In this document: piece after piece, positions 26,269 through 45,400 of the stretch
How the letters are laid out: every line of letters starts with the position of its first letter
Numbering within the stretch: position 1 is the first letter of the stretch
Assembly: GCA_041687695.1 (NCBI GenBank)
Contig: JAWLBL010000035.1
Span: forward strand, 1-64,000
Source: Myxococcota bacterium
Lineage (GTDB): Bacteria; Myxococcota_A; UBA9042; PHBI01; JAWLBL01
Reading direction: 5' to 3'
Length of the DNA stretch: 64,000 bases
The notes under the pieces: model-generated
Told to the model about the DNA's origin: nothing
The model's input: only the letters and a program-made list of their open reading frames with translations
Database searches by the model: none
Position numbers and translations under genes: made by a program

Positions 26269-26284
26269 TGGCACGCGGGTTGCT
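26269..26284 (+). promoter_or_regulatory. sigma54 -24/-12 promoter, consensus match
   Basis: TGGCAC-GCGGG-TTGCT; predicted +1 near 26295; GGAG RBS and ATG at 26320. Confidence 0.8.
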
Positions 26285-26319
26285 CAAACCCTGCCGCGGA
26301 CACGTGCTGGAGACCACAC

Positions 26320-27273
26320 ATGGGCGACGACGGGATCTGGGTCATCATCCTCGCGGGCGGCGAAGGCCGCCGGGTGCAGGCGGTCACGCGTCGGCCCGAC
26401 GGCGCCTCGGTCCCCAAGCAGTTCTGGCGCCTGCCCGAGGGCCCCACCCCCCTCGAGCTCGCGCTCGATCGCGCCTCGGATCTGGCCTCGCCCGAGCGCA
26501 CCATGGTCGTGGTCTCGGCCGACCACGAGCCGCTGTGGGCCCCGGCGCTCGACAGCCACCCCCGCGACAACGTCGTCGTCCAGCCAGCGCGTCGCGGCAC
26601 CGCCCCGGCCCTCCTGCTGGCCCTCGTGCGCGTCCTCGAGCGCGATCCCGGCGCCACCGTCGTCGTCATGCCCAGCGACCACTTCGTCGAAGACGAGGGC
26701 GCCCTGCACTGGGCCATGCTCAACGCCGTCGGCTCGGCGCGCCACCGCTCGGGCCCCATCGTGCTGCTCGGCATGACCCCGACCCACGCCGACACCAGCT
26801 ACGGCTGGGTGGTCCCCGAGCGCGGCGGCGACGGCCTCGCCCACGGCGTCGCCCGCTTCGTCGAAAAGCCCGCCCCCGCGCAGGCCGCCGCCCTCCACGC
26901 CGAGGGCGCCCTGTGGAGCAGCTTCATCCTGGCGGGCGCCGCCACGGCCCTGCTGCGTCTGCTCTCCGACACGCTGCCCGAGCTGGTCGCGGCCCTCTGG
27001 CACTGCGACGGACGCCGCCGCTCCCGCGATCTCGAGAGCCTCGAGGTCATCTACGAGCGCCTCCCCGCTCACGACCTGTCGGCCGACGTCCTGCAGACCG
27101 TCCCCGAGCGCCTCCGCGTCTTGCCCGTCCCGCCCTGCGGCTGGACCGACCTCGGCACTCCCGACGGCCTCACCGGCCGCCGCCCCGTCGCCGTCATCGC
27201 CCCGCGCCCCCCCGCGCGCCCCAGCACCTCCCTCCTGTCCACCCTCCTCGCGGCCGTGGGGCTCACCCGATGA
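26320..27273 (+). CDS. Mannose-1-phosphate guanylyltransferase-like nucleotidyltransferase, no isomerase domain
   Basis: ILAGGEGRR, PKQF, RGTAPA, PSDH, FVEKP, WTDLG. Confidence 0.85.
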   Translation: MGDDGIWVIILAGGEGRRVQAVTRRPDGASVPKQFWRLPEGPTPLELALDRASDLASPERTMVVVSADHEPLWAPALDSHPRDNVVVQPARRGTAPALLLALVRVLERDPGATVVVMPSDHFVEDEGALHWAMLNAVGSARHRSGPIVLLGMTPTHADTSYGWVVPERGGDGLAHGVARFVEKPAPAQAAALHAEGALWSSFILAGAATALLRLLSDTLPELVAALWHCDGRRRSRDLESLEVIYERLPAHDLSADVLQTVPERLRVLPVPPCGWTDLGTPDGLTGRRPVAVIAPRPPARPSTSLLSTLLAAVGLTR

Positions 27274-28676
27274 CGATGCAGCTCACCTTCCTCGGCGCCG
27301 TCGGCACCGTCACCGGGTCCAAGACCCTCGTCTCCGCCGGGCGCGCCCAGGTCCTGGTCGACTGCGGCCTGTTCCAGGGCTACAAGCGGCTCCGCCTCCG
27401 CAACTGGCGCCGGCCCGACTTCGAGCCCAGCCGCCTCGACGCCGTCGTCCTCACCCACGCCCACCTCGACCACTCCGGCTGGTTGCCGGTCCTGGTCCGC
27501 GCCGGCTTCCGCGGCCCCGTCTACTGCACCCCCGGCACGGCCGATCTCTGCGGCCTCCTCCTGCCCGACGCCGCGCGCCTGCAGGAAGAGGACGCGTCCT
27601 TCGCCAACCGCCACGGCACCTCGCGGCACCGCCCGGCCCTGCCCCTGTTCGACGAGAACGACGCGCGCCGCGCCTTGCGCCTGCTGAAGCCGGTGCCCTT
27701 CGACGCGCCGTTCGAGGCCGCCCCCGGCGTCGAGGTCTCCTTCGCGCCGGCCGGCCACATCCTGGGCGCGGCCCTCACCCAGCTCACCCACCGGGGCGCG
27801 ACGGCGCTCTTCACCGGCGACCTCGGGCGCCCCGACGATCTCATCATGCGCCCGCCGCGCCGTGGCCTCGAGACCGATCACCTGGTCCTCGAGAGCACCT
27901 ACGGCGGCCGCCAGCACCCCGAGGGCGACCCGCTCGAGGCCATCGCCCAGGTCATCACGCGCACCGTCGAGCGCGGCGGCTCGGTCCTGATCCCCGCCTT
28001 CGCCGTCGGGCGCGCCCAGGAGCTGACCCTGGCCCTGGACCGCCTGCGCCGCGCCGGCCGCATCCCGGAGGTCCCGGTCTTCCTGGACAGCCCCATGGCC
28101 GTCAAGGCGACCCACATCTACGCGCGCCATTACGCCGAGCACCGCCTGTCCGCCGACGAGGTCGAGCACATGGCCGAGTCGGCCCGGCTCGTCACCCAGG
28201 TCGAGGAGTCCAAGGCGCTCACGCGCATGCGCCACTCGCGCGTCATCGTCAGCGCGAGCGGCATGCTCACCGGCGGCCGCTCCCTCCACCACCTGGTCGC
28301 GCTGGCGCCCAACCCGGCCAACACCATCGCCTTCGCCGGGTTCCAGGCGCCCGCCACCCGCGGCGGCGATCTCGTGGCCGGCTCCCGGTCGGTCAAGGTC
28401 CATGGCCAGTGGATCCAGATCCGCGCCGAGGTCGTCTCGCTCGACGGCTTCAGCGCGCACGCCGACCAGCCCGAGACCCTCGACTGGCTCCGCACGCTGG
28501 CGCGCCCGCCACGCACGGTCTTCCTCAACCACGGCGAGCCCGCCGCGACCGAGGCCCTGCGCATCGCCATCCGCGAGGCCCTCGGCTGGGACGTCGTCGT
28601 CCCCGAGGAGGGGCAGCCCTACCGCTTGGACCCGGGCGTCCCCGCGCGCCTCGTCGAGCCGGGAGGGGCCACATGA
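27270..28676 (+). CDS. MBL-fold beta-CASP nuclease (YSH1/TTHA0252-like)
   Basis: VTGS, DCGLFQG, THAHLDH, GHILG, ESTYG, FAVGRAQE, SAHAD, HGE. ATGA overlap. Confidence 0.92.
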   Translation: MTMQLTFLGAVGTVTGSKTLVSAGRAQVLVDCGLFQGYKRLRLRNWRRPDFEPSRLDAVVLTHAHLDHSGWLPVLVRAGFRGPVYCTPGTADLCGLLLPDAARLQEEDASFANRHGTSRHRPALPLFDENDARRALRLLKPVPFDAPFEAAPGVEVSFAPAGHILGAALTQLTHRGATALFTGDLGRPDDLIMRPPRRGLETDHLVLESTYGGRQHPEGDPLEAIAQVITRTVERGGSVLIPAFAVGRAQELTLALDRLRRAGRIPEVPVFLDSPMAVKATHIYARHYAEHRLSADEVEHMAESARLVTQVEESKALTRMRHSRVIVSASGMLTGGRSLHHLVALAPNPANTIAFAGFQAPATRGGDLVAGSRSVKVHGQWIQIRAEVVSLDGFSAHADQPETLDWLRTLARPPRTVFLNHGEPAATEALRIAIREALGWDVVVPEEGQPYRLDPGVPARLVEPGGAT

Positions 28677-31420
28677 AGTCGGCCCCCGCCCCGCACGCCG
28701 TCCCTGCGAGCGAGGTCCTGGCCGGCCTCGACACCGGCCCGTCCGGCCTGTCCCCTGCCGAGGCCGCCGCCCGCCTCGCCCGCCTCGGGCCGAACACGCT
28801 GCCGTCCGAGCCTCCGGTCGGCCTGCTCGTGCTCTTCATCCGTCAGTTCAAGAGCCCGCTCATCTACGTGCTGCTGCTGGCGGCCATCGTGTCCCTGGCC
28901 CTGGGCGAGCTCGCCGACGGCCTGTTCGTCTTCTTCGCCCTCCTCCTCAACGCCATCATCGGCTTCATCCAGGAGCGCAGCGCCCAGCGCTCGGCCGAGG
29001 CGCTCAAGAGCCTGGTCGTCGCCCACGCGACCGTCCGCCGCGCCGGCGAGGACGCCGAGATCGCCGCCCAGGATCTGGTCCTGGGCGACCTGGTCCTGCT
29101 CGAGTCCGGCGCCAAGGTGCCGGCGGACCTGCGCCTCGTGCGCGCGAGCGGCCTCGAGGTCGACGAGTCCCTGCTGACCGGCGAGTCCCTGACGGTCGAC
29201 AAGCGCCCGGACGTCGTCCTCACCGAGGACGCGCCGCTGGGTGACCGCCGGAACATGGTCTTCGCCGGCACCCTGGTCACCCGCGGACGCGCCGAGGGGG
29301 TCGTGGTCGCGACGGCGTTCGACACCCAGCTGGGCCGCATCGCCGCCGACGTCCTGGGCGCCGAGTCGGGCGAGCCCCCGCTCCTGCAGCGCATGGCGCG
29401 CTTCACCTCGCGCGTCGCCATCGCCGTCGCCGTCATGGTCTCGCTGCTCGGCACCTTGTCGCTCCTGCAGGGCGCCACGCTGCACGAGGTCTTCATCCTG
29501 GGCGTGGCCCTGGCCGTCTGCGCGGTCCCCGAGGGGCTGCCCGTGTCCATCACGGTGGCCCTCGCCCTGGGCATGTCACGCATGAGCCGCCGCAACGTCG
29601 TCGTGCGCCGCCTGGTCGCGGTCGAGTCGCTGGGCTCCTGCACCTTCATCGCCACCGACAAGACGGGCACGCTGACCCTCAACGCGCTCACGGTGCAGCG
29701 CGTCGTCGCCCCCGGCGAGCGCCCCTGGGAGGTCACCGGCGGTGGCCAGGTCCCCGAGGGCGGCGTGCAGTGGCCCGACGATCTGGACCCGGCGGCCGCC
29801 GCCTCGCTGGCCGGCCGCATCGCCGAGGCCGGCGCCCTGTGCAACGAGGCCACCCTCGCCCGCAAGGACGGCGCCTGGACCCAGCACGGCGACGCCGTCG
29901 ACGTGGCCCTGCTGGTCTACGCGCACAAGCTGGGCCTGACCCGCGGCGCCCTCGAGGCCGCCCACCCGCCGCTCGCGGCCCTGCCCTTCGAGTCCGAGCG
30001 CCTCTTCGCCGCCTCGGTCCACCGCGTCGCCGGCCAGCCGGTCGCCTTCGTCAAGGGCGCCCTCGAGCGCGTCCTGCCGATGTGCACCACCATGGCCACG
30101 CGCCACGGTGACGCCCCCCTCGACGCCGCCACGCTCGAGGCCCAGGCCCGCGCCCTGGCCGCCGACGGCTACCGCGTCCTCGCCCTCGCCAGCGGCCCGG
30201 TCCCGGCGCTCGCGGGCGAGGCCCCGCCCCACCTCGTCGCCGATCACTTGAACGATCTCACGCTGGTCGGCCTCGTCGGCATGATCGACCCGCTGCGCCC
30301 CGAGGCCCCCGCCGCCATCGAGGCCTGCCGCCGCGCCGGCATCGAGGTCGCCATGGTCACGGGCGACCACCCGCTGACCGCCCTCGCCATCGCCCGCTCG
30401 CTCGGCCTCGCCGACACCGCCGAGCAGGTCGTCACGGGCCCCCAGCTCGCCGAGGCCGCCGCCCGCTCCGACGCCGAACGCGACGCCCTCGTCCGCCGCG
30501 CCCGCGTCTTCGCTCGGGTCAGCCCGCGCGACAAGCTCGAGATCGTCCAGGCCCTGACCCGCCTCGGCCACTTCGTCGCCGTCACCGGCGACGGCGCCAA
30601 CGACGCCCCCGCCCTGCGCGCCGCCCACGTCGGCGTCGCCATGGGCCTGCGCGGCACCGACGTCGCCCGCGAGACCGCCGACCTCATCATCAGCGACGAC
30701 GACTTCTCCTCCATCGTCAGCGGCATCGAAGAGGGGCGCGTCTCCTACGCCAACGTCCGCAAGGTCATCTTCCTGCTCATCTCGTGCGGCGCGGCCGAGC
30801 TCATCCTGTTCACGCTGGCCATGGCCTTCGGCCAGCCCCTGCCGTTCACGGCCGTGCAGCTCCTGTGGCTGAACCTGGTCACCAACGGCATCCAGGACGT
30901 GGCCCTGGCCTACGAGCCGGCCGAGGGCGACGAGCTGCGCCGCCGGCCGCGCTCGCCCGGCGAGGCCATCTTCGACCGCTCGATGATCGAGCGCGTGCTC
31001 CTGAGCGCCCTGGTCATGGGCGCGGTCACCTTCGCCGTGTTCGTCACCCTGCTCGACGCCGGCTGGGGCCTCGAGTCCGCGCGCAACAGCGCCCTGCTCA
31101 CCCTGGTGCTCTTCCAGAACGTCCTGGTGGGCAGCGCCCGCTCCGAGACCCGCTCGGCCTTCGCCCTGTCGCCGCTGCGCAACCGCGTGCTGCTCATCGG
31201 CACGGCGACCGCGCAGCTCATCCACCTGGGCGCCATGGTCACCCCCGGCGTGCGCGACGTGCTCGGCCTGCAGCCGGTCTCGCTCACCCACTGGCTCACC
31301 CTCTTCGGCCTCTCCCTGACCGTCCTCGCCGCGATGGAGCTGTACAAGTTCGTCCGGCGGCCCGCGCCGCGGCCGGTCGGCGGCGAGCGGCTGGCCACCG
31401 AGGCTGGAGCCCGGTCATGA
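28673..31420 (+). CDS. P2A-type cation-transporting P-type ATPase
   Basis: [40 protein letters not shown] overlap. Confidence 0.95.
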
Positions 31421-33300
31421 GCGCGACCGAGACCAAGGGACGACGCCTCACCCCGCAGCGGCTGGTCACCTTCGCCCTGCTCCTCGGGCTGACCCTGTGG
31501 GTGCTCCACGACGCCCGCACCCGCGCGGCGGCGGCGCAGCTCGTGCCCTACAGCGAGCTGCTCGAGGCCGCCCAGGACGGGCGGGTCGCCCGGCTGGTGG
31601 TGCATCCCGGGAGCTTCGAGGCCGAGCTGGTCGCCGACGGCGCCGCCGAGGACCGCGGCGAGCGCGAGCACGTCCGCGCCCAGCGTCTGCCCGGCCTCGA
31701 GGAGCGCGCCCTGCTCGACGCCCTCGCGGGGCGGCCGGTCGAGCTGGTGGGCGAAGACGACGGCCAGGGCGCCTGGTGGCCGATGCTGCTGATGTGGCTG
31801 CTGCCCATGGGCCTGTTCTTCGGCTACCTCGCCTGGAGCGTGCGCCGCGTGGGGCGCGGCGGCGGCGCGTCCGCCCTGAGCGTCGGCAAGGCCGGCGTGC
31901 GCATCTTCGACGCCTCGCGCGACCGCAAGGTGACCTTCGCCGACGTCGCGGGCGTCGACGAGGCCAAGACCGAGCTGGCCGAGATCGTCGCCTTCCTGCG
32001 CCACCCCGAGCGCTTCGCGGGCGTCGGCGCCCTGATGCCCAAGGGCGTCCTGCTCCTCGGCCCGCCCGGCACGGGCAAGACGCTGCTCGCGCGCGCCGTC
32101 GCGGGCGAGGCCGGCGTCCCCTTCTTCTCCATCTCGGGCTCGGCCTTCGTCGAGATGTTCGTCGGCGTCGGGGCCGCCCGCATGCGCGATCTGTTCGACA
32201 AGGCCCGCGAGCGCGCCCCCTGCATCGTCTTCATCGACGAGATCGACGCGGTCGGCCGCTCCCGCGGCGGCGTCGGCGCCATGGCCACCCACGACGAGCG
32301 CGAGCAGACCCTCAACCAGCTGCTGACCGAGATGGACGGGTTCGCCCCCAACAGCGGCGTCATCATCATGGCGGCCACCAACCGTCACGAGATCCTCGAC
32401 CCCGCCCTCCTGCGCGCCGGCCGCTTCGACCGCCAGGTGCTCGTCGACCGCCCCGACGTGACCGGCCGCGAGGCCATCCTGCGCATCCACGCGCGCCGGC
32501 TGCGCCTCGACGAGGACGTCGCGCTCGAGGTCGTCGCGCGCCGCACGCCCGGCATGGCCGGGGCCGACCTGGCCAACGTGGTCAACGAGGCGGCGCTCGC
32601 GGCCGTTCGCCGCGGCGCGGACCGGGTCGCGCAGCGCGACTTCGAGGAGGCCATCGACCGCATCCAGCTCGGGCTGAAGAAGGGCGCCTCGCCCATGACC
32701 GAGGCGGAGAAGCGCCGGGTCGCCATCCACGAGGCCGGCCACGCGCTGGTGGCCCTGTCGGTGCCGAACGCCGATCCCGTCCACCGCGTGTCCATCCTGC
32801 CGCGCGGGCTCGGGGCGCTCGGCGTGACCCTGCAGCTGCCGACCCACGACCGTCAGCTGCTGACGCGCTCCGAGCTCGACGACCGGCTCGCCGTGTTGAT
32901 GGGGGGCCGCGCCGCCGAGGAGCTCGTCTGCCACGAGGCCTCGACGGGCGCCCAGAACGACCTCGTCCAGGCGACCGAGACCGCCCGCGCGATGGTCCTT
33001 CAGCTCGGCCTCAGCGAAGCCATCGGGCCGGTCACCTACGAGCGGCGCCCCGAGTCGAGCTGGCTCGCCGGCTCCTCCCGCGCCGAGACGTCCGAGGAGA
33101 CCGCGCGCCTCATCGACGCCGAGATCCGCCGCATCCTCGACGAAGCCTACGGCCGGGCCTTGCGCGTGCTCGAGGTCCGGCGCGACCATCTGGAGGCGGT
33201 GGCCGACGCGCTCTGCGAGCACGAGACGCTCGACGCCGCCGCGCTGCAACAGCTGCTCGCCCGCCGGCCGCGGGTCGTACGCAGAGCGGGTGCGACATGA
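31417..33300 (+). CDS. ftsH: ATP-dependent zinc metalloprotease FtsH
   Basis: Two TM segments, [40 protein letters not shown] overlap. Confidence 0.95.
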
Positions 33301-34445
33301 CCGAAGCCTTCCAGCCGCTGGCCGACTCCCTCGGCTTCACGCCCCAGGACTCCGTCTACCTCCGGGCCTTGCACCAAAGGGTCGAGCCCCACCTGCCGGG
33401 CCTGGTCGACGGCTTCTACGCCTCCCTCGCCCGCCGCCCCGACACCGCCGCCGCCCTCGACCGCCACGGCCCACTCACGCGCCTGCACGCCATGCTCGCC
33501 GGCTGGCTCGACGAGCTGCTCCTCGGCCCCCACGACGAGGCCTGGCACGCCCGCCGCCGCCAGGTCGGCAGCGTCCACTTCCGCCTCGGCCTCGATCAGC
33601 GCGCCATGGTCCTCGCCATGGGCTTCGTCCGCCGCGGCCTGGTCGACCTCACCCTGACCCACGGCCTCGCCGACGACCCGGCCGCCACCGTCGGCGCCAT
33701 CGAGCGCGTCCTCGACCTCGAGCTGGCGACCCTGCTCGAGTCCTGGAACGAGGCCGACCGCCTCGCCACCGAGGCCGAGGCCGCCGAGGCCCGCAACCTC
33801 GCCCGCATGGGCGCCTTCGCCGCCGCCATCGCCCACGAGATCCGAAACCCCCTCGCGGGCATCTCGGCCGCCATGCAGCTCGTCCTGCTCTCGCTGCCCG
33901 CGGACGACCGCCGCCGCGGCGTCCTCACGAAGCTGCTCGACCAGGTGCGCCGCCTCGACCAGCACGCCACCGATCTGCTCGCCTTCAGCCAACCCCTCGA
34001 GGCCCGCTCCGCCTCCATCGACCTCGGCCAGGTGGCCCGGCTGGTCGCCTCCCAGGTGGCCGCCGGCGACCTCGGCGGCGCCGAGGTGGTGGGCGAAGGC
34101 GCCGCCCTGGGCGACGCCTCCCTGCTCGGCCTCGCCCTGACGCAGCTCATCCAGAACGCCTGGCAGGCGGGCGCCCGCCGCGTCCACGTCGCCATCCGGG
34201 ACGGCGCCATCGCCGTCTACGACGACGGGCCCGGCATCGATCCCGCCATCGTCGCCCGCATCTACGAGCCCTTCTACACGACGCGCCAGCGCGGCTCGGG
34301 CCTGGGCCTCACCAACGCCCTCCGCGCCATCCAGGCCATGGGCGGCAGGCTCCAGCTCACCGACTCGCCCCTCGGCGGCGCCGGCTTCGAGCTGACGCTT
34401 CAGCGCGCGACCAGCACCAGCGCGTCGTCGTCCGGGCGTCCGTAG
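33297..34445 (+). CDS. Globin-coupled (protoglobin domain) histidine kinase
   Basis: N-terminal [16 protein letters not shown] globin pattern; [32 protein letters not shown] overlap. Confidence 0.85.
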
Positions 34446-35419
34446 CGCTCGAGCAGCGCGTGCGCCACGAACAGGGGGTGCTGCCGGAGCAGCGCCAGGT
34501 CCGACGACAGATCCAGGCGCGTCCTCAGCCCGTCGGTCGCCAGCACCAGGACCTCGCCCGGCTCGCGCGGCATCCGCTCGACCCGCGGCGCGCGCCGTCG
34601 CAGGTCCGCCGCACCCAGCATGCCGCGCGTCGCCGTGAAGCGCAGCGCCTCGCGCGGCCGGTACCGATGCACCATGACGTCGCCGACGATGGTCGCCTCG
34701 AGCGCCTCGGCCGCGAAGTCGACCCGCGCGACGCCCATCACCGCCCCGCGCGTGCCCACGAGCGCCGCGTCGCACGCCCGCACCACGCCCTCGGGATCCC
34801 GCCCCGGGTCGGCGAGCACGGCCTGCATCGCCCGCGCCGACGCCTCGTGCGCCGGCGGCCCATGCCCCAGCCCGTCCGCCACGGCCACCAGCAGCGCCCC
34901 GTCGGTCCGGCAGAACGCCGCGTCGTCCCCGCTGACCGCCTCGCCCGGATAGGGCCGCCCCAGCACGGCGACGTCGCTGCGCCACGGCACCGGCCCCGCG
35001 AACACCCGCGCCCGCACGCACAGCCCCTCGCCCAGCCTCGCGTCGACGTCCAGCTCGTCGGCCAGCCGGTGCACGCCCGCCAGCCCCTGCCCCAGCCCGC
35101 CCGCGCTCGACGCGCCGCCCTCCAGCGCCGAACGCGCGTCGGCCAGCCCCGGCCCGCGGTCCGCCGCGATGACCTCGAGCCCGCAGACCGCGCCCCGCCG
35201 GACCTCGCGCACCCCCACGCGTCCGCCCACCGCGTGCCGCAGCTGGTTGTGCGCCAGCTCGCTCGCCGCCGTCGCCAGCCGCTCGAACGCGTCGCGCTCG
35301 AGCCCCACGCGCGCCCCCGCCTCGCGCACCGCCTCGCGCGCGACGGCGACCGAGGCCGGGTCGAAGATCGGCACGACCTCGGCCCCGGCCAGCCAGCGTT
35401 CGGTCAGAGTCGCTTCCAC
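34400..35419 (-). CDS. RsbX-like PP2C phosphatase with N-terminal RsbT-like HATPase domain
   Basis: SELAHN..H, DRGPG, GLGQGL, then SGDD, ADGLGHG, TDGL, DDDALV. Confidence 0.85.
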   Translation of the reverse strand: MEATLTERWLAGAEVVPIFDPASVAVAREAVREAGARVGLERDAFERLATAASELAHNQLRHAVGGRVGVREVRRGAVCGLEVIAADRGPGLADARSALEGGASSAGGLGQGLAGVHRLADELDVDARLGEGLCVRARVFAGPVPWRSDVAVLGRPYPGEAVSGDDAAFCRTDGALLVAVADGLGHGPPAHEASARAMQAVLADPGRDPEGVVRACDAALVGTRGAVMGVARVDFAAEALEATIVGDVMVHRYRPREALRFTATRGMLGAADLRRRAPRVERMPREPGEVLVLATDGLRTRLDLSSDLALLRQHPLFVAHALLERYGRPDDDALVLVAR

Positions 35420-35817
35420 TTCACGATGACCACGCGCGTCCCCTGGCCGGGCGCGGTGTCCAGCTCCATCTCGTCGACCAGCCGCCGGCTGCCCGACAGC
35501 CCGAGCCCCAGCGAGCGCACCGTGCTGAAGCCGCCCTCCATCGCCCGCGACAGGTCGGCGATGCCGGGCCCCTCGTCCGTGAACGTGACCCGGATGCCGC
35601 GCTGCCCGAGGCGCTCGACCTCCTCGACGATCGCGTCGCCGCCGCCGCCGTGGACCCAGGCGTTGCGGGCCAGCTCGCTGGTCGCCGTCGTGATCGCCGC
35701 CGCCGCGAACGAGCTGAACCCCAGGCGATCGGCCAGCTCGCGCACCTTGCGGCGCACCAGCACCACGTCGTCCTCGGCGCGGATGGGCAGCGCGTGCTGC
35801 GAGACGCTACGCGACAT
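35404..35817 (-). CDS. rsbT: Stressosome serine/threonine kinase RsbT
   Basis: DVVLVR, SELARNA..HGGGG, DEGPGI, GFST..LGLGL, KW. Confidence 0.92.
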   Translation of the reverse strand: MSRSVSQHALPIRAEDDVVLVRRKVRELADRLGFSSFAAAAITTATSELARNAWVHGGGGDAIVEEVERLGQRGIRVTFTDEGPGIADLSRAMEGGFSTVRSLGLGLSGSRRLVDEMELDTAPGQGTRVVIVKWKRL

Positions 35818-35823
35818 CGGCGC

Positions 35824-36192: not shown

Positions 36193-37142
36193 TGGTCGCC
36201 TCCCACGTCCGACACCAGCGCGTCGTCGGCCATGCCGGCCGCGGGCCGGTCGACCAGGGTCATGGCCAGCTTCAGGCCGTCCGCGAGGCGGTTGCGCGTG
36301 TGCATGGCCGAGATGTTCAGCCCCAGCTGCACGATGGTCTTGGCCACGGTCGGCGAGATGCCGGTCAGGACGGTGCGCGCCCCCAGCAGCCGAACGGCCT
36401 CGGTCGTCTTGAGCAGGTGGTCGGCGACCTTGGTGTCGACGACGGCGACGCCCGCGATGTCGATGATGATGATGCGCGCCTGGTGCTCGACGACGGCCAT
36501 CAGCACGCGCTCCATCACCTGCTGGGCGCGCTGCGTGTCGACGGTCCCCACCAGCGGCAGGAGCAGGATGCGGTCGTGGATCTGGATGACCGGCGTGGAA
36601 AGCTCGCGGACGGCCGCCTGGTGGCGCTCGAGCGAGTCGACGAAGGCGGCGATGTAGGTGTCCATCGCGATGGCCATGTCGAAGGCGACCAGCTTCTCGA
36701 TGCTCTGCTGCGCCGCGTGGAACTCCTCGCGCGACTCGAACTCGTGCAGCAGCCGGTCGAAGATGAGGCGCAGGTAGCGGGCGTAGGCGCCGATGTACAG
36801 CTTGGGCGGCACGCCGACGCGCTCGTGGGCGAGGCCGATGCGCAGCCGATCGTCGACGTAGGCGAGGTCGCAGCGCCCCGCGAACAGCCCCAGGAAGTAC
36901 TCGCGCTGGGCCTGCTTGACGTGCCGGATGGTCGCCTGGTCGGGGAAGTGTCGCCGGCTCTCCGCGTGGCCCAGGATGAGCTCGTAGAGGGACTCGACGA
37001 TGTCGTCCATGTACTTTTCGGCGAAGGGCCGCAGCCGCGCGAGCCGCGCGAGGTCCTCGTCGTGCAGCTCGAAGAATTCGCGGCGGCTGCGTAGCTCGGC
37101 CTCGTCGAACCGCAGCCGCGCCGTCAGATGTTGGTAGACCAT
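36189..37142 (-). CDS. rsbR: Globin-coupled stressosome sensor RsbR
   Basis: Sensor globin (VESLY, RLRIGLAHERVG..PKLY), ELSTPV linker, STAS with GTVDTQRA and VVDTKVA. Confidence 0.92.
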   Translation of the reverse strand: MVYQHLTARLRFDEAELRSRREFFELHDEDLARLARLRPFAEKYMDDIVESLYELILGHAESRRHFPDQATIRHVKQAQREYFLGLFAGRCDLAYVDDRLRIGLAHERVGVPPKLYIGAYARYLRLIFDRLLHEFESREEFHAAQQSIEKLVAFDMAIAMDTYIAAFVDSLERHQAAVRELSTPVIQIHDRILLLPLVGTVDTQRAQQVMERVLMAVVEHQARIIIIDIAGVAVVDTKVADHLLKTTEAVRLLGARTVLTGISPTVAKTIVQLGLNISAMHTRNRLADGLKLAMTLVDRPAAGMADDALVSDVGGDQ

Positions 37143-37223
37143 CGCTCGCTCCCGAAAAGGCCGGCACGCTTTTAACCCGCCCGCGCCCGGCCCGCCAGCG
37201 TTGTCGAGCCCGCCGCTCCAGGC

Positions 37224-38465
37224 TTGACGTCATCCGCCTCGCTCCCGACACTCGCGCCCGTGTCGGCCTCGCCCCCCAACGTGGACACCAAGACGCCCAT
37301 CGAGGTGCTCGTCCACTTCAGCCACCTGCTCGCCACGACGGACGCTCCCGACGAGATCCTCGGGCTGCTCGCGCGCGCCGCGGTCGACCACCTGGGCGCC
37401 GACGGCGCGGGCGTGCTCGAGATCGCCGGCGACGAGGCCCACCTGGTCGCGGCCGCCGGGCTCCCCGTCGCCTCCCCGGCCGCCCACCCCAGCCCGTCCT
37501 TCGAGGTCGAGACCATCGGCCCCGAGCTCGGCGATCGCCTGCTCGCCGCCTGGCACCTGCCCGACGGCGTCGCCCACACCCTGCCGCTCGTGTCGGGCGG
37601 CGACCTCTTCGGCGTCCTGGTCCTCGTCTGCGCGACCGGCCACCGCCACCACCTGGCCGAGCTGCAGCTCGGGCAGGCCCTGGTGGATCTGGCCGCCACG
37701 GCCCTCAGCAAGGCCCACCGCCTGGCCCAGCTCGAGCGCGCCTACGCCGAGCTCGAGGCCTCGCGCGACGTCCTCGTCCGCACCGAGAAGCTGCGCGCCC
37801 TGGGCGAGATGTCGACCGGCGTGGCCCACGACCTCAAGAACATCCTGACCCCGCTCATCCTCGCCGTCACCCAGCTCAAGCGGAACCCGGACGTCCCCAA
37901 GGCGACGCTCGAGATGGTCCTGGGCTCGATGGACCGCGTCCTCGTCCGCGGCCTGCAGACCGTCGACCGCCTGCGCCTGTTCGGCCACCAGTCCGCCGAC
38001 AGCCCCGCCCAGGCCGTCGACGTCGACGCCCTCGTCGACGAGGCCGTCCACATGGCCAACGGCCACATCAAGCCCGGCCAGATGGCCCGCATCGTCACCG
38101 AGCGCGGCGCCCCACCGCTCATCCGCGTGCAGCCCTCCGAGCTCGTCGCCGCCCTGGTGAACCTGCTGGTCAACGCCCTGCACGCCATCGGCGGCGCCGG
38201 CCGCGTCACCGTGACGACCCGCGCGGCCGCTGGAGGCGCCGAGATCCTGGTCGCCGACACCGGCCCGGGCATGACGGCCGAGGTCAGAGAGCGCGTCTTC
38301 CAGCCGTTCTTCACCACCAAGGGCCGCGAGGGCACGGGCCTCGGCCTGGCGATGGTCTACGCCCTGGTGCAGCGCAGCCACGGCCTCATCCACCTCGACT
38401 CCGAGCCGGGCGAGGGCGCCACCTTCACCCTGTGGTTCCCCGCCGCCGAGCCCCCCGCCGCCTGA
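37224..38465 (+). CDS. GAF-domain histidine kinase
   Basis: GAF-like N-terminus (LPLVSGG..FGVL), VAHDLKN, NLLVNA, DTGPGM, FFTTK, GTGLGL. Start uncertain; GTG at 37281 is possible. Confidence 0.88.
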   Translation: MTSSASLPTLAPVSASPPNVDTKTPIEVLVHFSHLLATTDAPDEILGLLARAAVDHLGADGAGVLEIAGDEAHLVAAAGLPVASPAAHPSPSFEVETIGPELGDRLLAAWHLPDGVAHTLPLVSGGDLFGVLVLVCATGHRHHLAELQLGQALVDLAATALSKAHRLAQLERAYAELEASRDVLVRTEKLRALGEMSTGVAHDLKNILTPLILAVTQLKRNPDVPKATLEMVLGSMDRVLVRGLQTVDRLRLFGHQSADSPAQAVDVDALVDEAVHMANGHIKPGQMARIVTERGAPPLIRVQPSELVAALVNLLVNALHAIGGAGRVTVTTRAAAGGAEILVADTGPGMTAEVRERVFQPFFTTKGREGTGLGLAMVYALVQRSHGLIHLDSEPGEGATFTLWFPAAEPPAA

Positions 38466-38482
38466 GGACCCGACCCCGCGCT

Positions 38483-40753
38483 TCAGCGCGGCAGGTCCAC
38501 GCGAAAGCGCGCGCCGCCGCTGACCGCCTCGCCGACCGCGATGCGGCCGCCCAGCGCCTCGACGATGCGCCGCACGATCCACAGCCCCAGGCCGTGGCTC
38601 TCGCTCGCGGCCTCGTCCGTCGCGCGATAGAACCGCTCGAAGACCAGCTCCCGGTGCTCGGGCGCGATCCCTGGGCCCCCGTCGGACACCTCGATCCAGG
38701 CGGTCTTCGCGTCCGCCCCGATCTCGATGAGGATGGGCCGCCCCGTCCCGTACTTCACCGCGTTGGTCAGCAGGTTCGTCAGGATCTGCTCGATCCGCAC
38801 CCGGTCCCACCGCCCCCGCACCTGGCCTTCGCACACGCAGCTGGCCTCGCACGCGCCGGCGTCCAACAGCTCGGCCTGCCGCGCGAGCACGTCGCGCGCC
38901 ACCTCGGCCAGGTCCAGATCCTCCGGGAACACCTCGACCGGGCCGGTCGAGCGCCCCGTGGCCAGCAGATCGTCGATGAGCCGCACCGCCCGATCGACCG
39001 TCTCGCGGCTGCGCGTCATGGCGGCCTCGAGCCACTCGCCGCTGACCCGCTCGGGGCTCTTGCGCAGCGTCCGCATCACCATGTCCTGCTGCAGCCGCAG
39101 CGCGGCCAGGGGCTCCTTCAGGTCGTGCGACGCCATCGCCAGCAGATCCTCGCGCGCCAGCCGCTCGGCCTCGTCCCGCACCGCCCGCGCGCGCTCGGCC
39201 TTGGCCCGCCGGGTGTCGCTGATGTCGATGCCCGTCCCCACGAAGTGCGTCGCCTGGCCCTCGTCCCGCGACACGGGCGAGAACGACCAGGCGATCCAGC
39301 GCCGCTCTCCGCCGCGCGTCGTCCACGCCAGCTCACACCCGCGCGGCTGGCCGCTCTGGCGCACGCGCCCCAGCGTCTCGTCCAGGCTGGCCAGGTTCTG
39401 GGCAGAGACCATGCGCCGGTAGCCGTGGTCGCGGGCGTCCTCGAAGCTGAAGCCGGTCAGGCGCTCGCACGCCGGGTTCCAGCGCACCAGCCGCGCCTCG
39501 GCGTCCAGCACGATCACCAGGGTCCCCAGGGCGCCCAGCACGTCCCCGCTCACCCCGAAGGCGCCGTCGACCCGCGCCTTGGCGTCCAGGTGCCGCTCCA
39601 TCGTGACCCGCGACCGCTCGAGCGCCGCCGCCGTCGCCTCGGCCACGCGCTCGAGGGCCGCCCGGCCCCCGGCGTCGGGCGTCGCCGACGGCGCGTAGGC
39701 GACCGAGAGCATGCCCAGCGTGCGACCGCCGACGATGAGCGGGATGAACCCGAAGGCCTCGCGCTTGCCCAGCTCGGGGGTCTTCGCGACGAGCTCGGGG
39801 TAGCGCTGCGCCATCTCGGTCCGCGACGCGATCCACAGCGGCCGCCCCATCGCGATCGCCTCGGTCACCGGGTTCACCACCGGCGTCTGCACCCGGAGGC
39901 TGGACCACTCGCGCATCAGCTCCGTCGGGATCCCGCTGGCGGCCGTCAGCTCCAGGGTGCGCCAGAGCGGATCGAGCAGCCACAGGATCGCCGCCCGCCC
40001 GCCCACCGCGCGCCGACCCTCGTCCACCGCGGCCTCGGCCACCTCCAGCGGCGTGGCGATGCCCTGCAGGGCTTGGGTGAAGCGCTCCACGTCCTCGGGA
40101 CCGACGGTGGTCGCGGCCGGCGGGTCCCCTCGCCGCATCGCGCCGAACGACTCGGCCAGCCGCACGGCGATGGGTTCGATCCCGAGCAGCTGCGGATGAG
40201 ACAGACCCAGCGTCGCGCACGTCCCCACGGTCAGCGCCCCCACCAACTCACCCCGGCACAGCAGCGGAAACACCGCCAAGCCCCCAAGGAGCGGCTCGAC
40301 GTCCATGAACACCGGCAGCCGGTCGGCGTCGTCACGCGCCGTCTCGAGCAGCCGCCGCGCCACCGCCACGCCGTCGACGGCCCCGACGCCTCGCTCCGTC
40401 GCGCCGTCGCCTGCCCCCCCGCAACGCCCCCGTGCCGGACATTCGTGCATCTGCACAACCCGCAGGCTGCCGCCGCCCTGCAGCGCGGCGTCGACGGCAT
40501 ACCAGTCGACGATCGCGGCCAGATCCCGCGCCTCTTTGTGCAGTGCAGCGAATTCGCCGCCCTCGGCCGAGCGCGAAGTGGCAGACGGGCCCTCCGGCGG
40601 TGATGCGAACGCCGGCCGGACCCCTCCCTGCCGCGATTCGCCCTGGCCAGGCAGCCGCGTGGAGTCGGTCACGATATCCCCCCGAAGTCGGGCCTGCGTG
40701 TGGCTCCGATGAAGGACAAGATACCGCCGATGGCGCCCGGCTGCCAAGGGCAC
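38483..40753 (-). CDS. GAF-PAS histidine kinase
   Basis: GAF (FIPLIVGGRTLG), PAS (WNPACERLTG), ASHDLKEPL, NLLTNAVKY, DGGPGI, GLGL. Start uncertain; GTG at 40672 is an alternative. Confidence 0.85.
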   Translation of the reverse strand: MPLAAGRHRRYLVLHRSHTQARLRGDIVTDSTRLPGQGESRQGGVRPAFASPPEGPSATSRSAEGGEFAALHKEARDLAAIVDWYAVDAALQGGGSLRVVQMHECPARGRCGGAGDGATERGVGAVDGVAVARRLLETARDDADRLPVFMDVEPLLGGLAVFPLLCRGELVGALTVGTCATLGLSHPQLLGIEPIAVRLAESFGAMRRGDPPAATTVGPEDVERFTQALQGIATPLEVAEAAVDEGRRAVGGRAAILWLLDPLWRTLELTAASGIPTELMREWSSLRVQTPVVNPVTEAIAMGRPLWIASRTEMAQRYPELVAKTPELGKREAFGFIPLIVGGRTLGMLSVAYAPSATPDAGGRAALERVAEATAAALERSRVTMERHLDAKARVDGAFGVSGDVLGALGTLVIVLDAEARLVRWNPACERLTGFSFEDARDHGYRRMVSAQNLASLDETLGRVRQSGQPRGCELAWTTRGGERRWIAWSFSPVSRDEGQATHFVGTGIDISDTRRAKAERARAVRDEAERLAREDLLAMASHDLKEPLAALRLQQDMVMRTLRKSPERVSGEWLEAAMTRSRETVDRAVRLIDDLLATGRSTGPVEVFPEDLDLAEVARDVLARQAELLDAGACEASCVCEGQVRGRWDRVRIEQILTNLLTNAVKYGTGRPILIEIGADAKTAWIEVSDGGPGIAPEHRELVFERFYRATDEAASESHGLGLWIVRRIVEALGGRIAVGEAVSGGARFRVDLPR

Positions 40754-40777
40754 AGCCGTATTCTTTGGGAATACGAG

Positions 40778-42175
<1,398 letters not shown>

Positions 42176-42250
42176 CTTGCTCTCCTCGTTGGGCCGTCGG
42201 GCGGTCGGAGCGTGTCTCGCGCCCCCATCCGGGTCCTCGCCGGGTCATTC

Positions 42251-42266
42251 TGCACACGGCGTGCCG
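42251..42266 (-). promoter_or_regulatory. sigma54-like promoter motif upstream of the NtrC-type gene
   Basis: Minus strand CGGCAC-GCCGT-GTGCA, GG-N10-GC. Confidence 0.5.
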
Positions 42267-42356
42267 AATCCGGTCCGACCCTGTCCGCGCGCCGTGCTGC
42301 GGGCCGTGGCGACGCGCGCGTCCTCGTCTTGGTGCGAAAGGCCACACCGGGCCGTG

Positions 42357-43883
42357 CTATTTCCCACACCCCGTAGCATCGGCCAGGGGCAGCTCGATGG
42401 TCATCACGGTGCCTCCGTCGGGCGGGCACACCAGATCGACCGTGCCGCCGTGGGCCTCGACCATGCGCCGCACGATGGCCAGGCCCAGCCCGGTGCCCTT
42501 GTGGCGCGTCGTGAAGAACGGCTGGAAGACCCGGTCTCGCACGTCCGGCGGGATCCCCGGTCCCTCGTCGGCCACCGCGATGCGGCACGTGCGCTCCCCC
42601 CGAGTGAGGGTCAGCCGTACGGGGCGTCCGGTGATGCCGGCCTCGTCGAGGGCCTGAGACGCGTTGAGCAGCAGGTTGAGCACGGCCTCGCGCAGCAGCG
42701 CCGCGTCCGCCGCGACGACGACCGGCGTCGCCGGCCGCTCGAAGACGACCTCGCCCTGCCCGGGCGAGTCGGCGAGCAGCGCCCTGGTCTCCTCGAGCAG
42801 GGCCCCCAGCTCGACCTCGGCCATGAGCGGCGTCCGCGGCCGCGCGTACAGCAGCAGATCCTCGAGCTTGAGCGTCAGCGTCTTGATGCGCTCGACGATG
42901 CTGCCGATGACGCGCCGCTCGGGGCTGGCTTCGGGCAGCCGCGTCGCGATGACCTGCACGGCCCCGCCGATCCCGGTCAGGGGGTTGCGCACCTCGTGGG
43001 CCACCATCGCCGCCATCTCACCCAAGGTCGCCAGCGCCGCCTGCTCGCGCAGCCGCTGCTCGGCGCGCTTGCGCTCGGTGATGTCGTTGCGGATGGACAG
43101 GTAGCGATAGGGCCGGCCGCGCTCGTCCAGGAACGGGACGATGGTCGTGTCCACCCAGTAGAAGTGCCCGTCCTTGGCGCGGTTGCGGATCTCGCCGCGC
43201 CACACGCCCCCCTGCCCGATGGTCCGCCACATCTCGCGGAAGAACTCGCGCGGGTGGTAGCCCGAGTTGACGATCCGGTGATCCTGCCCCATCAGCTCGT
43301 CGCGCGCGTAGCCGCTGATCGCGCAGAAGCGGTCGTTGACGTAGATGATGCGACCGCGCTGGTCGGTGGTCGCCACGATGCTCGCCTGGTCGAGCGCCTG
43401 CTTCATCTCCTCGAGCTCGCGGCGCGAGGCCGCCAGGGCGCGGTCCGCGTCGTGGCGCTCGGTGAAGTCCAACCCGGAGCAGAGCAGGCCCACGCGCCCG
43501 GTCGCGTCCTTGAGCGGCGTGTGCTGCCAGCGCACCTGTCGGATCTCGCCCGCCCGCGTCAGCATCGGCAGCTCGAGCGGCTCGTCGGCCTCGGGGCTCC
43601 CCGCCAGACAGCGCTCGAGCGCCTCGCGCGCGCCCAGCTCCGCCGACGGCGGCAGCGACCGCGCGAACCAGTCCTGTCCGATCAGCTCCTCCGCGGTCCA
43701 CCCGACCACCTGCGCGAGCCGCTCGTTGGCCAGCGTGACGCGCCCCTCGCGGTCCAGCGCCACGACGTACGCCTCGGCGATGTCGAGCACGAGCGCGGCC
43801 ACGCGCGCTTTGTCGCCCACCACGCCCGCCTCGGCCGCCGGCGCCCGCGCCGCCACGTCCGCTCGTCGTCCCTCGGCCGTCAC
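42357..43883 (-). CDS. PAS-PAS histidine kinase
   Basis: PAS1 (ELIGQDWF), PAS2 (YVNDRFC.ISGY, NSGYHP..FF..MW.TI, GEIRNRAKDG), VAHEVRNPL, DEGPGI, GTGLGL. GTG overlaps the upstream stop. Confidence 0.92.
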   Translation of the reverse strand: MTAEGRRADVAARAPAAEAGVVGDKARVAALVLDIAEAYVVALDREGRVTLANERLAQVVGWTAEELIGQDWFARSLPPSAELGAREALERCLAGSPEADEPLELPMLTRAGEIRQVRWQHTPLKDATGRVGLLCSGLDFTERHDADRALAASRRELEEMKQALDQASIVATTDQRGRIIYVNDRFCAISGYARDELMGQDHRIVNSGYHPREFFREMWRTIGQGGVWRGEIRNRAKDGHFYWVDTTIVPFLDERGRPYRYLSIRNDITERKRAEQRLREQAALATLGEMAAMVAHEVRNPLTGIGGAVQVIATRLPEASPERRVIGSIVERIKTLTLKLEDLLLYARPRTPLMAEVELGALLEETRALLADSPGQGEVVFERPATPVVVAADAALLREAVLNLLLNASQALDEAGITGRPVRLTLTRGERTCRIAVADEGPGIPPDVRDRVFQPFFTTRHKGTGLGLAIVRRMVEAHGGTVDLVCPPDGGTVMTIELPLADATGCGK

Positions 43884-44320
43884 GACAGACACGCGGCGAT
43901 CTGCCCGGCGATCGTCTCGAGGTCGAAGGGCTTGTCCACGAAGGCCCGCACGCCGCCCGCCACCGCCCGCGCCGTCACCGCGTCGCTCCGATGGGCCGTC
44001 ATCAGGATGACGACGGCGCCCGGCGCCGCCGCCCGCACGTCCGCGAGCAGACTCAAGCCGTCCGAGTCGGGCAGCTTGAGGTCGAGCAGCACGACGTCCG
44101 GCGGCCGCGCCGACGGGTCGGCCAGCCGCGCGCGCGCCTCGCCGATGCTGGCGGCCTCGCGGACCTCGCAGCCGAGCTCGCCCAGGCGCTGCGTGAGCGA
44201 CCACCGGATGAGCTCCTCGTCGTCGACGACCAGGACGGCGCGGCCGGCGAGGCTGGGCGGGACGTCGTCCTGACCTCGCGGGCCGCGCGCGGGCGGTACT
44301 GGCAGCGTCATCGGGCCCAT
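43880..44320 (-). CDS. Single-domain response regulator
   Basis: VVDDEELIRWSL, LLDLKLPD, MTAH, KPFD. ATG after GAGAGG. Confidence 0.88.
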   Translation of the reverse strand: MGPMTLPVPPARGPRGQDDVPPSLAGRAVLVVDDEELIRWSLTQRLGELGCEVREAASIGEARARLADPSARPPDVVLLDLKLPDSDGLSLLADVRAAAPGAVVILMTAHRSDAVTARAVAGGVRAFVDKPFDLETIAGQIAACLS

Positions 44321-44354
44321 GGGGAACCTCTCGGGTGGGCGGGCGGGCACGTGG

Positions 44355-44831
44355 TCAGGCCTCGGGCGATGGCGCGGCCCGCCGCACGACCAGCACGGGG
44401 ACCGACGCCAGACGCACGACGCGCTCGGCCACGGAACCCAGCAGCGCGCGCTTGATGCCCGTGCGGCCGTGCGTGCCGACCACGATGCGGTCGACACCCA
44501 GCTGCGTGGCGGCCTCCAGCACGGCCTCGGCCGCGTGCCCGACCCGCAGCTCGGGGTCGCAGTCGACGCCCGGGAACGTGCGCTCGACGCGCTCCGCGGC
44601 CTCTTGCAGGCTCGCCCGCGCGCGCTCGGAGGCCTGCGCGTGGACGTCCTCCCACGATCCCAGGCTGCCGTAGCCGCCCAGCGGGTCCAGGGTCACGGGC
44701 GCCGGCGCGAGGTCCAGCACGTGCAGCAGCACGATGCGGCCCTGACGGGCGACCAGCTCGCGCGCCGCCTCGTTCAGGGCCTCCTCGGCCGACTCTGAGA
44801 AATCGTAGGCCACCAGCCAGGTCGGGTTCAT
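44355..44831 (-). CDS. Universal stress protein
   Basis: VAYDFS, LLHV, IVVGTHGRTG..LGSVAERVV..PVLVV. Confidence 0.92.
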   Translation of the reverse strand: MNPTWLVAYDFSESAEEALNEAARELVARQGRIVLLHVLDLAPAPVTLDPLGGYGSLGSWEDVHAQASERARASLQEAAERVERTFPGVDCDPELRVGHAAEAVLEAATQLGVDRIVVGTHGRTGIKRALLGSVAERVVRLASVPVLVVRRAAPSPEA

Positions 44832-44872
44832 CGCGGACTCCATCATTCGAGAGGTGGGTTCGAGCAGCCGGG

Positions 44873-45307
44873 TCAGGGGACGATGGTGACGGGGACCTTG
44901 CTGTGGGCAGCCAGGGCGCGCGAGACGCTGCCCTCGATGGCGCGGCGGAACGGCCCCTTGCCGGTCCGGCCGAGCACCACCATCTGAACGCCCTCGCGCT
45001 CGGCGAGATCCAGCAGCCGGTCGGCGACGTGGCCGATCTCGACGTGGGCATGGACGGGCGGCGCCTCCGGGCCGAGGCGCAGGACGGCCGGCCGCAGCAC
45101 CTCGGCGTCGACCCGCTGCTCGAGCGCCTGCACGTCGGTCCAGGCGATGCCGTCGCGCGTGAACATCTCGAGGGGCGGCGTCTCGAGCACCGCCACCACC
45201 TCGAGCGACAGGCCCTGGGCGGTGGCGAGCCGCGCGGCCAGCGCCAGCGCGCGCAGGCTGGGCTCGGAGCCGTCGATCGGGACGAGGAGGCGGTCGGTCG
45301 TGGTCAT
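44873..45307 (-). CDS. Universal stress protein
   Basis: LVPIDGS, VVLGRTG, GSVS..PVTIVP. Confidence 0.9.
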   Translation of the reverse strand: MTTTDRLLVPIDGSEPSLRALALAARLATAQGLSLEVVAVLETPPLEMFTRDGIAWTDVQALEQRVDAEVLRPAVLRLGPEAPPVHAHVEIGHVADRLLDLAEREGVQMVVLGRTGKGPFRRAIEGSVSRALAAHSKVPVTIVP

Positions 45308-45384
45308 GTCGTGTCCTGTGTAGGTAACGGTGTGCGGGGGCGGCGTGTCCAGCGCTCACCCCGCGTGCGGTCCACCCACGCTTC

Positions 45385-45400
45385 AGCACGTTCCATGCCA
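45385..45400 (-). promoter_or_regulatory. sigma54 -24/-12 promoter motif for the usp operon
   Basis: Minus strand TGGCAT-GGAAC-GTGCT, GG-N10-GC, about 80 nt before the usp ATG. Confidence 0.68.

Follow-up and report, generated by a model that had tools for sequence, protein, structure and literature searches.

The closest described relatives of the gene cluster analysed here are the NmpRSTU pathway of Myxococcus xanthus and the haem-globin stressosome of Vibrio. The cluster lies between two sigma-54 promoter motifs, at 26269 and 45400, in a 64,000-nucleotide stretch of DNA (the window) from a Myxococcota bacterium (contig JAWLBL010000035.1 of GenBank assembly GCA_041687695.1), and it was compared with the rest of the host genome (G000; 7.97 Mb, 99% complete, rpoN present) and with related genomes. 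We consider it reasonably probable that a low-oxygen sigma-54 regulon is controlled from this cluster, and that a globin stressosome in an orientation of its own, together with its GAF-domain histidine kinase, has been inserted there as a third sensor. Two known kinds of system, the Vibrio-type stressosome and NmpR-like hypoxia control, are combined here in a way not found in print; the literature searched, outside which most subscription journals lie, yielded no report of a globin-coupled stressosome with sigma-54 and none of this module or this activator. The initial annotation of the window had suggested a candidate new system, but it had missed NmpRSTU, from which the logic of globin kinase, NtrC-type activator and sigma-54 hypoxia regulon was already known.

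In M. xanthus NmpRSTU, and with AfGcHK of Anaeromyxobacter (PDB 5OHE), a protoglobin kinase stands above an autoregulated NtrC-type activator, with paired enhancer sites and a receiver-only sink (PMC6211767, PMC11841059). The window resembles NmpRSTU in these features and, by prediction, in the content of the sigma-54 regulon: cbb3 oxidase and the P-type ATPase that goes with it, hemN, a CBS protein and a universal stress protein (USP). It differs in that NmpT (two receivers) and NmpS (a receiver-kinase hybrid) were not found, the best matches in the genome being unrelated architectures of 35-37% identity; in that the activator belongs to another clade, with a recognition helix unlike the GISVRKIQYR of NmpR and a different box; and in that the kinase wiring looks direct and includes a flavin-type PAS kinase, with denitrification genes among the predicted targets. 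The available parts of PMC6211767 and PMC11841059 do not mention a stressosome.

The stressosome of the window resembles the RsbRSTX systems of V. brasiliensis (PMC4976288) and V. vulnificus (PMC9237108) in having a globin-STAS RsbR with a proximal His and a distal Tyr, RsbS, RsbT and a feedback phosphatase next in line, no SigB and a candidate output of two-component type. Unlike those systems, it has a phosphatase fused to an RsbT-like domain and, as candidate output, a GAF kinase that lacks RsbU_N and is encoded upstream and divergently. According to the V. vulnificus study, most downstream proteins lack RsbU_N, and binding of RsbT to its candidate kinase was not detected (PMC9237108). The survey of stressosomes, in its available parts, lists Proteobacteria, Lentisphaerae, Bacteroidetes and Cyanobacteria, with PP2C, c-di-GMP and phosphorelay outputs and not a sigma-54 hypoxia regulon; the legend of Fig. 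3 of PMC9237108 names GAF and HisKA domains, so the GAF-kinase architecture may be drawn there. The stressosome-MtG system of Moorella thermoacetica is similar in that RsbT acts on a GAF-containing enzyme rather than on RsbU (Quin 2012, as cited in PMC4976288 and PMC12143880). MtG, however, has RsbU_N and makes c-di-GMP, whereas the protein in the window is a histidine kinase with GAF alone. The DosR regulon of mycobacteria has haem-GAF kinases and a LuxR-type regulator independent of sigma-54, unlike the globin and PAS sensors and the REC-AAA-HTH_8 regulator of sigma-54 type found here. The likeness to DosS/DosT-DosR, in haem sensors, hypoxia, USPs and a cation ATPase (cited in PMC11841059), is one of analogy only.

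Transcription units and sigma-54 promoters

Gene orientation divides the cluster into four units: 26320-34445 (+), 37142-34400 (-), 37260-38465 (+) and 45307-38483 (-). What the initial annotation had taken for a single island within an inward-facing sigma-54 bracket is merely two convergent operons, although both of its promoter motifs proved to be real and near consensus: TGGCAC-N5-TTGC before the left operon (26269-26284, +) and TGGCAT-N5-GTGC before the right operon (45385-45400, read from 45400 to 45386 on the - strand, 45385 being the low end). A third, degenerate site, CGGCAC-N5-GTGC, starts at 42266 (42251-42266, -) upstream of the activator gene, which predicts autoregulation. The window holds four -24/-12 matches against 0.85 expected, a number reached by one of 100 shuffles. 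Across the genome, 103 of 136 strict matches are intergenic, where intergenic DNA makes up about 13%, and 84 face a gene, or about one per 95 kb. Given this intergenic enrichment and the presence of rpoN, the motifs are probably real; the sigma-54 motifs of this genome appear to be genuine promoters, and yet common rather than rare.

The second of the four units comprises rsbR, rsbS, rsbT and an RsbT-RsbX fusion, and the third is the GAF kinase. Motif scans found neither a sigma-54 match nor the 14-bp box described below in the 118 bp that separate rsbR from the GAF kinase gene. A scan for sigma-70 promoters and terminators returned one promoter-like site (40747, -) and five terminator-like sites, against 0.2 and 2.0 expected, none of them in this 118-bp gap, an outcome that carries little information. 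By the sigma-54 scans, the stressosome sits between two convergent sigma-54 operons and has no sigma-54 site of its own. The globin kinase and RsbT-RsbX fusion genes overlap tail to tail by 46 nt (34400-34445), which is consistent with insertion of the stressosome module against the end of an operon. GC content across the region (0.71-0.77) is like that of the flanks, and the deviant composition expected of a mobile island was not found.

The activator and its probable kinases

The resident activator (40778-42175, -) is a Pfam-supported regulator of the REC-AAA-HTH_8 type with a GSFTDA loop. It falls outside the NmpR-like clade and is 45% identical to the NmpR-like protein of locus L151, which we treat as the nmp locus on the basis of its gene layout (nmpU-T-S; CBS...nmpR) and not of a named sequence; the activator and kinase trees are quick and FastTree trees with local supports only. 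The best NmpR-type match in G000 reaches 51%, and no NmpR orthologue was found there. Within the order, 13 of 17 other genomes have an orthologue of the resident activator (64-75% identity); of 401 Myxococcota genomes sampled, 65 contain a match with E 1e-160 or better.

At 14 activator loci of the order, the neighbours include a PAS kinase (seven loci), a USP (nine) and cbb3 genes (two), while FtsH, the P2A ATPase, the nuclease and the stressosome are beside the activator at none of the 14. Twenty further loci of the phylum were chosen for long contigs among 54 matching genomes outside the order, and 13 of them have a globin kinase within 10 kb of the activator (two confirmed by Pfam). Candidate globin kinases beside the activator in G004 and G010 were rejected, as the kinase half alone matches and Pfam finds no globin.

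The globin kinase of the window (33297-34445, +; Pfam), which retains Tyr41 and His94 and has a kinase domain of the activator-adjacent family, shares the H-box signature HE[IV]RNPL[AT]GI with a PAS-PAS histidine kinase (42357-43856, -; Pfam), and the activator shares a helix-1 signature with a stand-alone receiver (43880-44320, -; Pfam), the likely phosphate sink. Shared-signature reasoning of this kind was applied earlier to NmpT and NmpS (PMC6211767). The second PAS domain of the PAS kinase is closest to 3EWK (E 1.5e-59), followed by Aer and NifL. We take 3EWK to be MmoS, and all three to bind FAD. From these signatures, the globin kinase and the MmoS/Aer-like PAS kinase, the latter as cognate kinase, are likely the inputs of the activator. 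The GAF-PAS kinase at the end of the right operon (38483-40753, -; Pfam, start uncertain) is conserved with neither the stressosome nor the activator.

As oxygen falls, the PAS kinase, a predicted flavin redox sensor, and the globin kinase, a predicted haem sensor of O2 or nitric oxide, would increase the phosphorylation of the activator, and the lone receiver would serve as a sink; we propose this step with good confidence. One point tells against it. The characterised relatives, AfGcHK and NmpU, carry bound O2 in their active state (PMC11841059), which is the reverse of the sign required for a direct link; a globin kinase wired directly would need either the other sign or the action of an O2-on phosphatase. 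In sequence, the globin kinase of the window has 30% identity to the NmpU-like protein of L151, but its kinase domain falls in another group.

Globin or globin-PAS kinases adjoin NmpR-type activators at six other loci (L033, L037, L041, L049, L056 and L097), and the four of these kinases placed in the tree (L033, L041, L049 and L097) have kinase domains that are NmpS-like, not NmpU-like. The sequences suggest that Polyangia-type genomes wire the globin kinase directly, without the NmpS inverter, and that many uncultured Myxococcota connect it directly to an activator, which would need an O2 sign opposite to that of AfGcHK and NmpU. In G014, a contig ending with L187 has a hemN homologue, a CBS gene, a pair of USPs and the first part of a globin protein at that end, and another contig, at the start of L133, has the last part of a kinase and the activator; the two are probably one operon split by assembly.

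A paired palindrome and the predicted regulon

Paired, imperfect 14-bp palindromes, found by eye, precede each of the three local sigma-54 sites at a distance of 66-101 nt: at 26170-26183 and 26203-26216 (+; 99 and 66 nt before the -24 element), at 42332-42345 and 42354-42367 (-), and at 45455-45468 and 45477-45490 (-). Their consensus is near GTGYGA-WW-TCRCAC, and pairs are found 50-125 nt upstream of sigma-54 cores with a spacing of 22-33 nt. When one promoter at a time was left out, the local promoters ranked 1-3 of 83. Near orthologues of the activator in the order, 14 of 32 sigma-54 sites reach a box score of at least 15 (nine genomes; three divergent pairs share sites), as do 15 of 46 sites in the phylum, spread over 12 of the 20 loci; in G000 the figure is 8 of 184, the three training promoters included. 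The NmpR box is found at none of the 32 and none of the 46 sites. As a local enhancer, the NmpR box GCGCA-N5-TGCGC was rejected (none of three local promoters; 1 of 184 sites in the genome).

A matrix built from 22 sites in other genomes returned 30 pairs in G000, among which the local promoters rank 1 (activator gene), 6 (left operon) and 8 (right operon), norC/CBS 2, ccoG 4, an RpoH-like sigma factor 5, hemN-ccoNO-ccoP 7 and a NapA-like region 12. The ccoG, hemN and rpoH-like promoters have the core TGGCCC-N5-TTGC, and the copper nitrite reductase gene nirK (TIGR02376) ranks 8 of 184 when the sigma-54 sites of G000 are scored for the box. The predicted targets match the NmpR-type gene set (cbb3 oxidase, its ATPase, hemN, CBS, USP), of which cbb3 oxidase and hemN are NmpR targets (PMC11841059). 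By inference from these targets, the resident activator is a low-oxygen regulator. We predict with high confidence that it binds the palindromes and so controls both local operons, its own gene, cbb3 oxidase, hemN, nitric oxide reductase, the CBS protein, the RpoH-like sigma factor and, probably, nitrite reductase. It would be the second low-oxygen regulator of myxobacteria, one for which both a box and a regulon are predicted.

These results need to be read with some caution. The six training sites were chosen by visual inspection, and since the first matrix served to select the 22 outside sites, these are not fully independent; the box is absent from 18 of the 32 and 31 of the 46 sites, including several upstream of activator genes; and rank 3 in the 22-site scan, at a haem A synthase-like gene located after one of the Crp/Fnr family, comes without a sigma-54 core. 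Ranks 9-11 lack an explanation or an annotation, and noise probably accounts for many of the lower pairs.

The palindrome might instead be bound by another factor, either a Crp/Fnr-family protein or one of two paralogous activators, at C14:151322 and C7:73313. The consensus resembles two TGTGA half-sites, and the rank 3 pair fits a Crp/Fnr-family protein; both paralogues group with the resident activator, and the one on C14 also lies by NTP-transferase and CBS genes. However, the half-site spacing is unlike that of a CRP/FNR site, the pairs cluster near sigma-54 cores around orthologues that have the recognition helix of the resident activator, and the C14 paralogue has a different recognition helix. 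We regard binding by another factor as quite improbable.

Only slightly less improbable is that the signal is nitric oxide or the respiratory redox state rather than O2 itself. Among the predicted targets are the reductases of nitric oxide and nitrite and a NapA-like operon; the PAS kinase resembles MmoS and Aer; and Vibrio RsbR shows intermediate activity with NO and CO (PMC4976288). On the other side, genes such as cbb3 oxidase and hemN, which are NmpR targets (PMC11841059), are typical of low O2, and both globins retain the distal Tyr that has been linked to O2 binding (PMC4976288).

The RpoH-like gene (a sigma-70-family factor at C3:179805-180704, locus L230) carries both the activator's box and a sigma-54 core; a cascade from sigma-54 to an alternative sigma factor at low oxygen is possible on this evidence.

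A conserved stressosome module with its own kinase

The only two protoglobin matches in the genome, RsbR and the globin kinase, are both at this locus. RsbR (36189-37142, -; PF11563 and PF01740) matches PDB 7O0I, of V. vulnificus, best and over its full length (E 6e-51), and its distal Tyr53 and proximal His106 are invariant in 25 homologues. The genes rsbR, rsbS (35824-36192, -; a STAS protein) and rsbT (35404-35817, -; the switch kinase), the latter two identified by Pfam, stand in one operon, and phosphoacceptor motifs are present in RsbS (VDS, with Ser59) and RsbR (VVDT). We take these to be equivalent to the Bacillus phosphorylation sites. After RsbT, no single-domain PP2C RsbX was found; in its position, a SpoIIE/PP2C phosphatase is fused to an RsbT-like domain (34400-35419, -; Pfam). 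The GAF kinase (37260-38465, +) is divergent from rsbR.

A scan of the genome collection with the single RsbR sequence gave no matches, an alignment query being needed; the alignment scan returned 166 RsbR relatives, and the counts below cover the best 80 of these 166 loci. RsbS is present in 78 of the 80, RsbT in 77 and the RsbT-RsbX fusion in 71. The GAF kinase is found in 62, in 60 of them divergent and adjoining, and three loci are too short to judge; its profile was built from 42 of the loci counted, which therefore match by construction. The conserved unit is globin-RsbR, RsbS, RsbT, the RsbT-RsbX fusion and, as a fifth gene, this distinctive GAF kinase. The structural model of the kinase shows a GAF fold and a long signalling helix (pLDDT 93), which a fold search confirmed, the hits being generic GAF domains of 12-26% identity with no close solved relative. 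The domain keeps conserved acidic positions, and the window kinase is the sole strong match to the family that the genome contains. Its conservation with the module makes the GAF kinase the likely output of the stressosome.

The initial annotation had noted the lack of a SigB pathway in the window, and the genome agrees with it: no SigB/F/G model scored above cut-off, RsbU_N had no matches, and no separate full-length RsbW-type protein was found, full-length HATPase_c_2 matches being confined to the window. The seven STAS matches of the genome are RsbR, RsbS, four SulP-like transporters (by sequence reading) and one receiver-SpoIIE-STAS fusion; besides RsbR and RsbS, the window has a single STAS match, at 13450, which belongs to a SulP-like transporter. 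The fusion (C6:99163-100986, L110) has RssB/RssC-like matches, and at C13:208533-210885 a membrane SpoIIE phosphatase adjoins a STAS-like protein of 259 amino acids (C13:210106). By their domains, these genes belong to partner switches, although SigB was not found in the genome.

In Vibrio, stressosome activity is highest with Fe(II) free of ligand, and NO and CO give intermediate activity (PMC4976288). By this analogy RsbT would be freed at low O2: deoxy globin-RsbR would release RsbT, which would bind or phosphorylate the GAF kinase, and the RsbT-RsbX fusion would reset the module. We think this course of events probable.

A probable link from the stressosome to a low-oxygen activator

Among the relatives, the stressosome keeps company with genes of hypoxia. 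USPs occur in 17 of the 40 stressosome loci of at least 19 kb, against 1.0% of random 21-kb windows, and sigma-54 activators in 14 of the 40, against 7.8%, with G000 alone as background for both. Globin kinases were found by reading in 10 of the 80 loci, three of them confirmed by Pfam. The published NmpR box, with at most one mismatch, is present at 31 of 66 sigma-54 sites of stressosome loci (shuffles: mean 0.42, maximum 3), and the activators of these loci group with the NmpR-like protein of the Myxococcus locus L151. Together, the boxes and the grouping indicate that the stressosome elsewhere tends to reside in NmpR-type hypoxia neighbourhoods.

In 50 of the 80 stressosome genomes we searched for both activator types and found the NmpR type in 43, the window type in three, neither in four and, at the thresholds used, both in none. 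Where the genome has an NmpR-type activator, 33 of 38 GAF kinases carry Asn at position H+7 (the remaining five have Tyr twice and His, Ala and Ser once each); where it has none, five of six carry Ala or Gly. For reference, the NmpS-like kinase has Asn, and activator-adjacent kinases have Ala or Thr. In the kinase-domain tree, the GAF kinases of G010, G265, G333 and G353 join the family of the window PAS kinase (local support 87), and most of the others form a clade (100) next to the NmpS-like kinases (85). A prediction set beforehand held in both testable genomes, G333 and G265, whose GAF kinases have Ala and a full activator-type kinase domain; G361 has the stressosome and a window-type activator, with no kinase beside rsbR. 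As far as sequence comparison goes, the specificity residues of the GAF kinase track the type of low-oxygen activator in the genome.

Across the phylum, the GAF kinase thus probably feeds whichever low-oxygen activator the genome has; for G000 itself we propose this more tentatively, as somewhat doubtful. The stressosome-to-activator step is least certain in G000 because its GAF kinase lacks the activator-type kinase domain. It keeps the ancestral kinase domain (clade support 100) with the signature HDLKNILTPLILAVTQ, which fits both activator types poorly, and has Thr at H+7 in a drifted signature; the kinases of L029 and L039 stay in the same clade. Its H-box is matched at 9 of 16 residues by the closest of the 58 kinases of the genome. 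Further points weigh against the step beyond G000. Fifteen of the 80 loci have no GAF kinase despite sufficient flank; H+7 is small in two of the 38 NmpR-type genomes, and kin among the genomes are not independent; the stressosome occurs in three of the 50 searched genomes with a window-type activator; and within the order a close RsbR was found in G010 alone, on a different contig from the activator. An invariant Ser or Thr in the GAF domain was sought as a target of RsbT and rejected, the best columns being 58-65% Ser/Thr.

Stressosome and activator may instead be neighbours only, the regulon being real and the stressosome and GAF kinase signalling to another receiver, or the kinase decaying. 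The missing activator-type domain and the 9/16 H-box match fit this view, as do the lack of a sigma-54 site or box in the module and the separate location of the stressosome in G010, G265, G333 and G361. Against it stand the kinase-domain swap in four genomes, the co-variation at H+7 and the repeated residence of stressosomes among USP and NmpR-box genes, and we consider it unlikely.

The most far-reaching reading, a tentative one that may well fail as a whole, is that a widespread haem-globin stressosome of Myxococcota outputs through a dedicated GAF kinase into a sigma-54 hypoxia activator, the kinase being retuned by point change or kinase-domain swap to whichever of two mutually exclusive activator families is present. 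In G000 the result would be a three-sensor hub (stressosome, globin kinase and flavin-PAS kinase) that feeds an activator of a family not described before, one with a separate enhancer and a regulon of cbb3 and denitrification genes; the stressosome would reach sigma-54 by the action of RsbT on a GAF domain. Of the oxygen module proposed in the initial annotation, low-oxygen sigma-54 control through the resident activator with globin kinase input is supported; its stressosome link has support from kinase/activator co-variation across relatives but is doubtful in G000. For Gram-negative O2-sensing stressosomes, the candidate transmitter here is one small soluble protein family. Since the GAF kinase travels with the stressosome and co-varies with activator and box, input, transmitter and read-out could be tested in vitro with five or six proteins.

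Remaining genes of the two operons

Pfam confirmed all genes of the initial annotation, from the beta-CASP nuclease to the two USPs; the NTP transferase at the head of the left operon had been omitted. This gene (26320-27273, +; PF00483) is mannose-1-phosphate guanylyltransferase-like and scores below the TIGR01479 cut-off. It is followed on the same strand by the beta-CASP nuclease of metallo-beta-lactamase fold (27270-28676; Pfam, HxHxDH motif), the P2A-type cation ATPase (28673-31420; Pfam, with DKTGT, TGES and PEGL motifs) and FtsH (31417-33300; above the TIGR01241 cut-off), an additional paralogue, one of three in the genome. The right operon begins with two USPs (44873-45307 and 44355-44846, both - and by Pfam), the second of which is kept beside the activator across the order.

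That all 16 genes act as one conserved, sigma-54-bracketed unit is very improbable. Both outer promoters carry the box, and a few relatives again have homologues of the cargo close to genes of hypoxia (FtsH by USP, CBS and a hemN homologue in G017; the P2A ATPase by the nuclease in G013). However, the genes form four transcription units, FtsH and the NTP transferase are in none of the 80 stressosome loci, the P2A ATPase is in three and the nuclease in two, and the cargo and stressosome genes were absent from beside the activator throughout the order loci. For FtsH, the ATPase, the nuclease and the NTP transferase, co-regulation is the sole role suggested.

At C14:149932-155879 (L109), an activator paralogue is divergent from a paralogue of the NTP transferase, with c-type cytochrome-like and CBS genes nearby, and this type of NTP transferase seems, from gene order, to be tied to this activator family.

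Other genes of the window

Two further sigma-54 motifs of the window (23013 and 25490) have no box beside them and are not counted as part of the system. The first precedes a two-gene unit of secreted or outer-membrane-like proteins (23013-24604, +), and many of the 84 gene-facing sigma-54 promoters of the genome precede secreted or lipoprotein genes. The second lies 421 nt upstream of the gene for a secreted or lipoprotein cytochrome c (24653-25490, -), with no gene called between; this stretch is possibly a long leader or a small RNA. A similar cytochrome stands at the end of a ccoG-ccoI operon at C22:30084. At 49119-50872 (+) are two adjoining putative nucleotidyltransferase-like genes, judged by eye from sequence, and at 50975-52450 (+) a second sigma-54 activator of REC-AAA-HTH architecture, 35% identical to the resident one and with no adjoining kinase gene.

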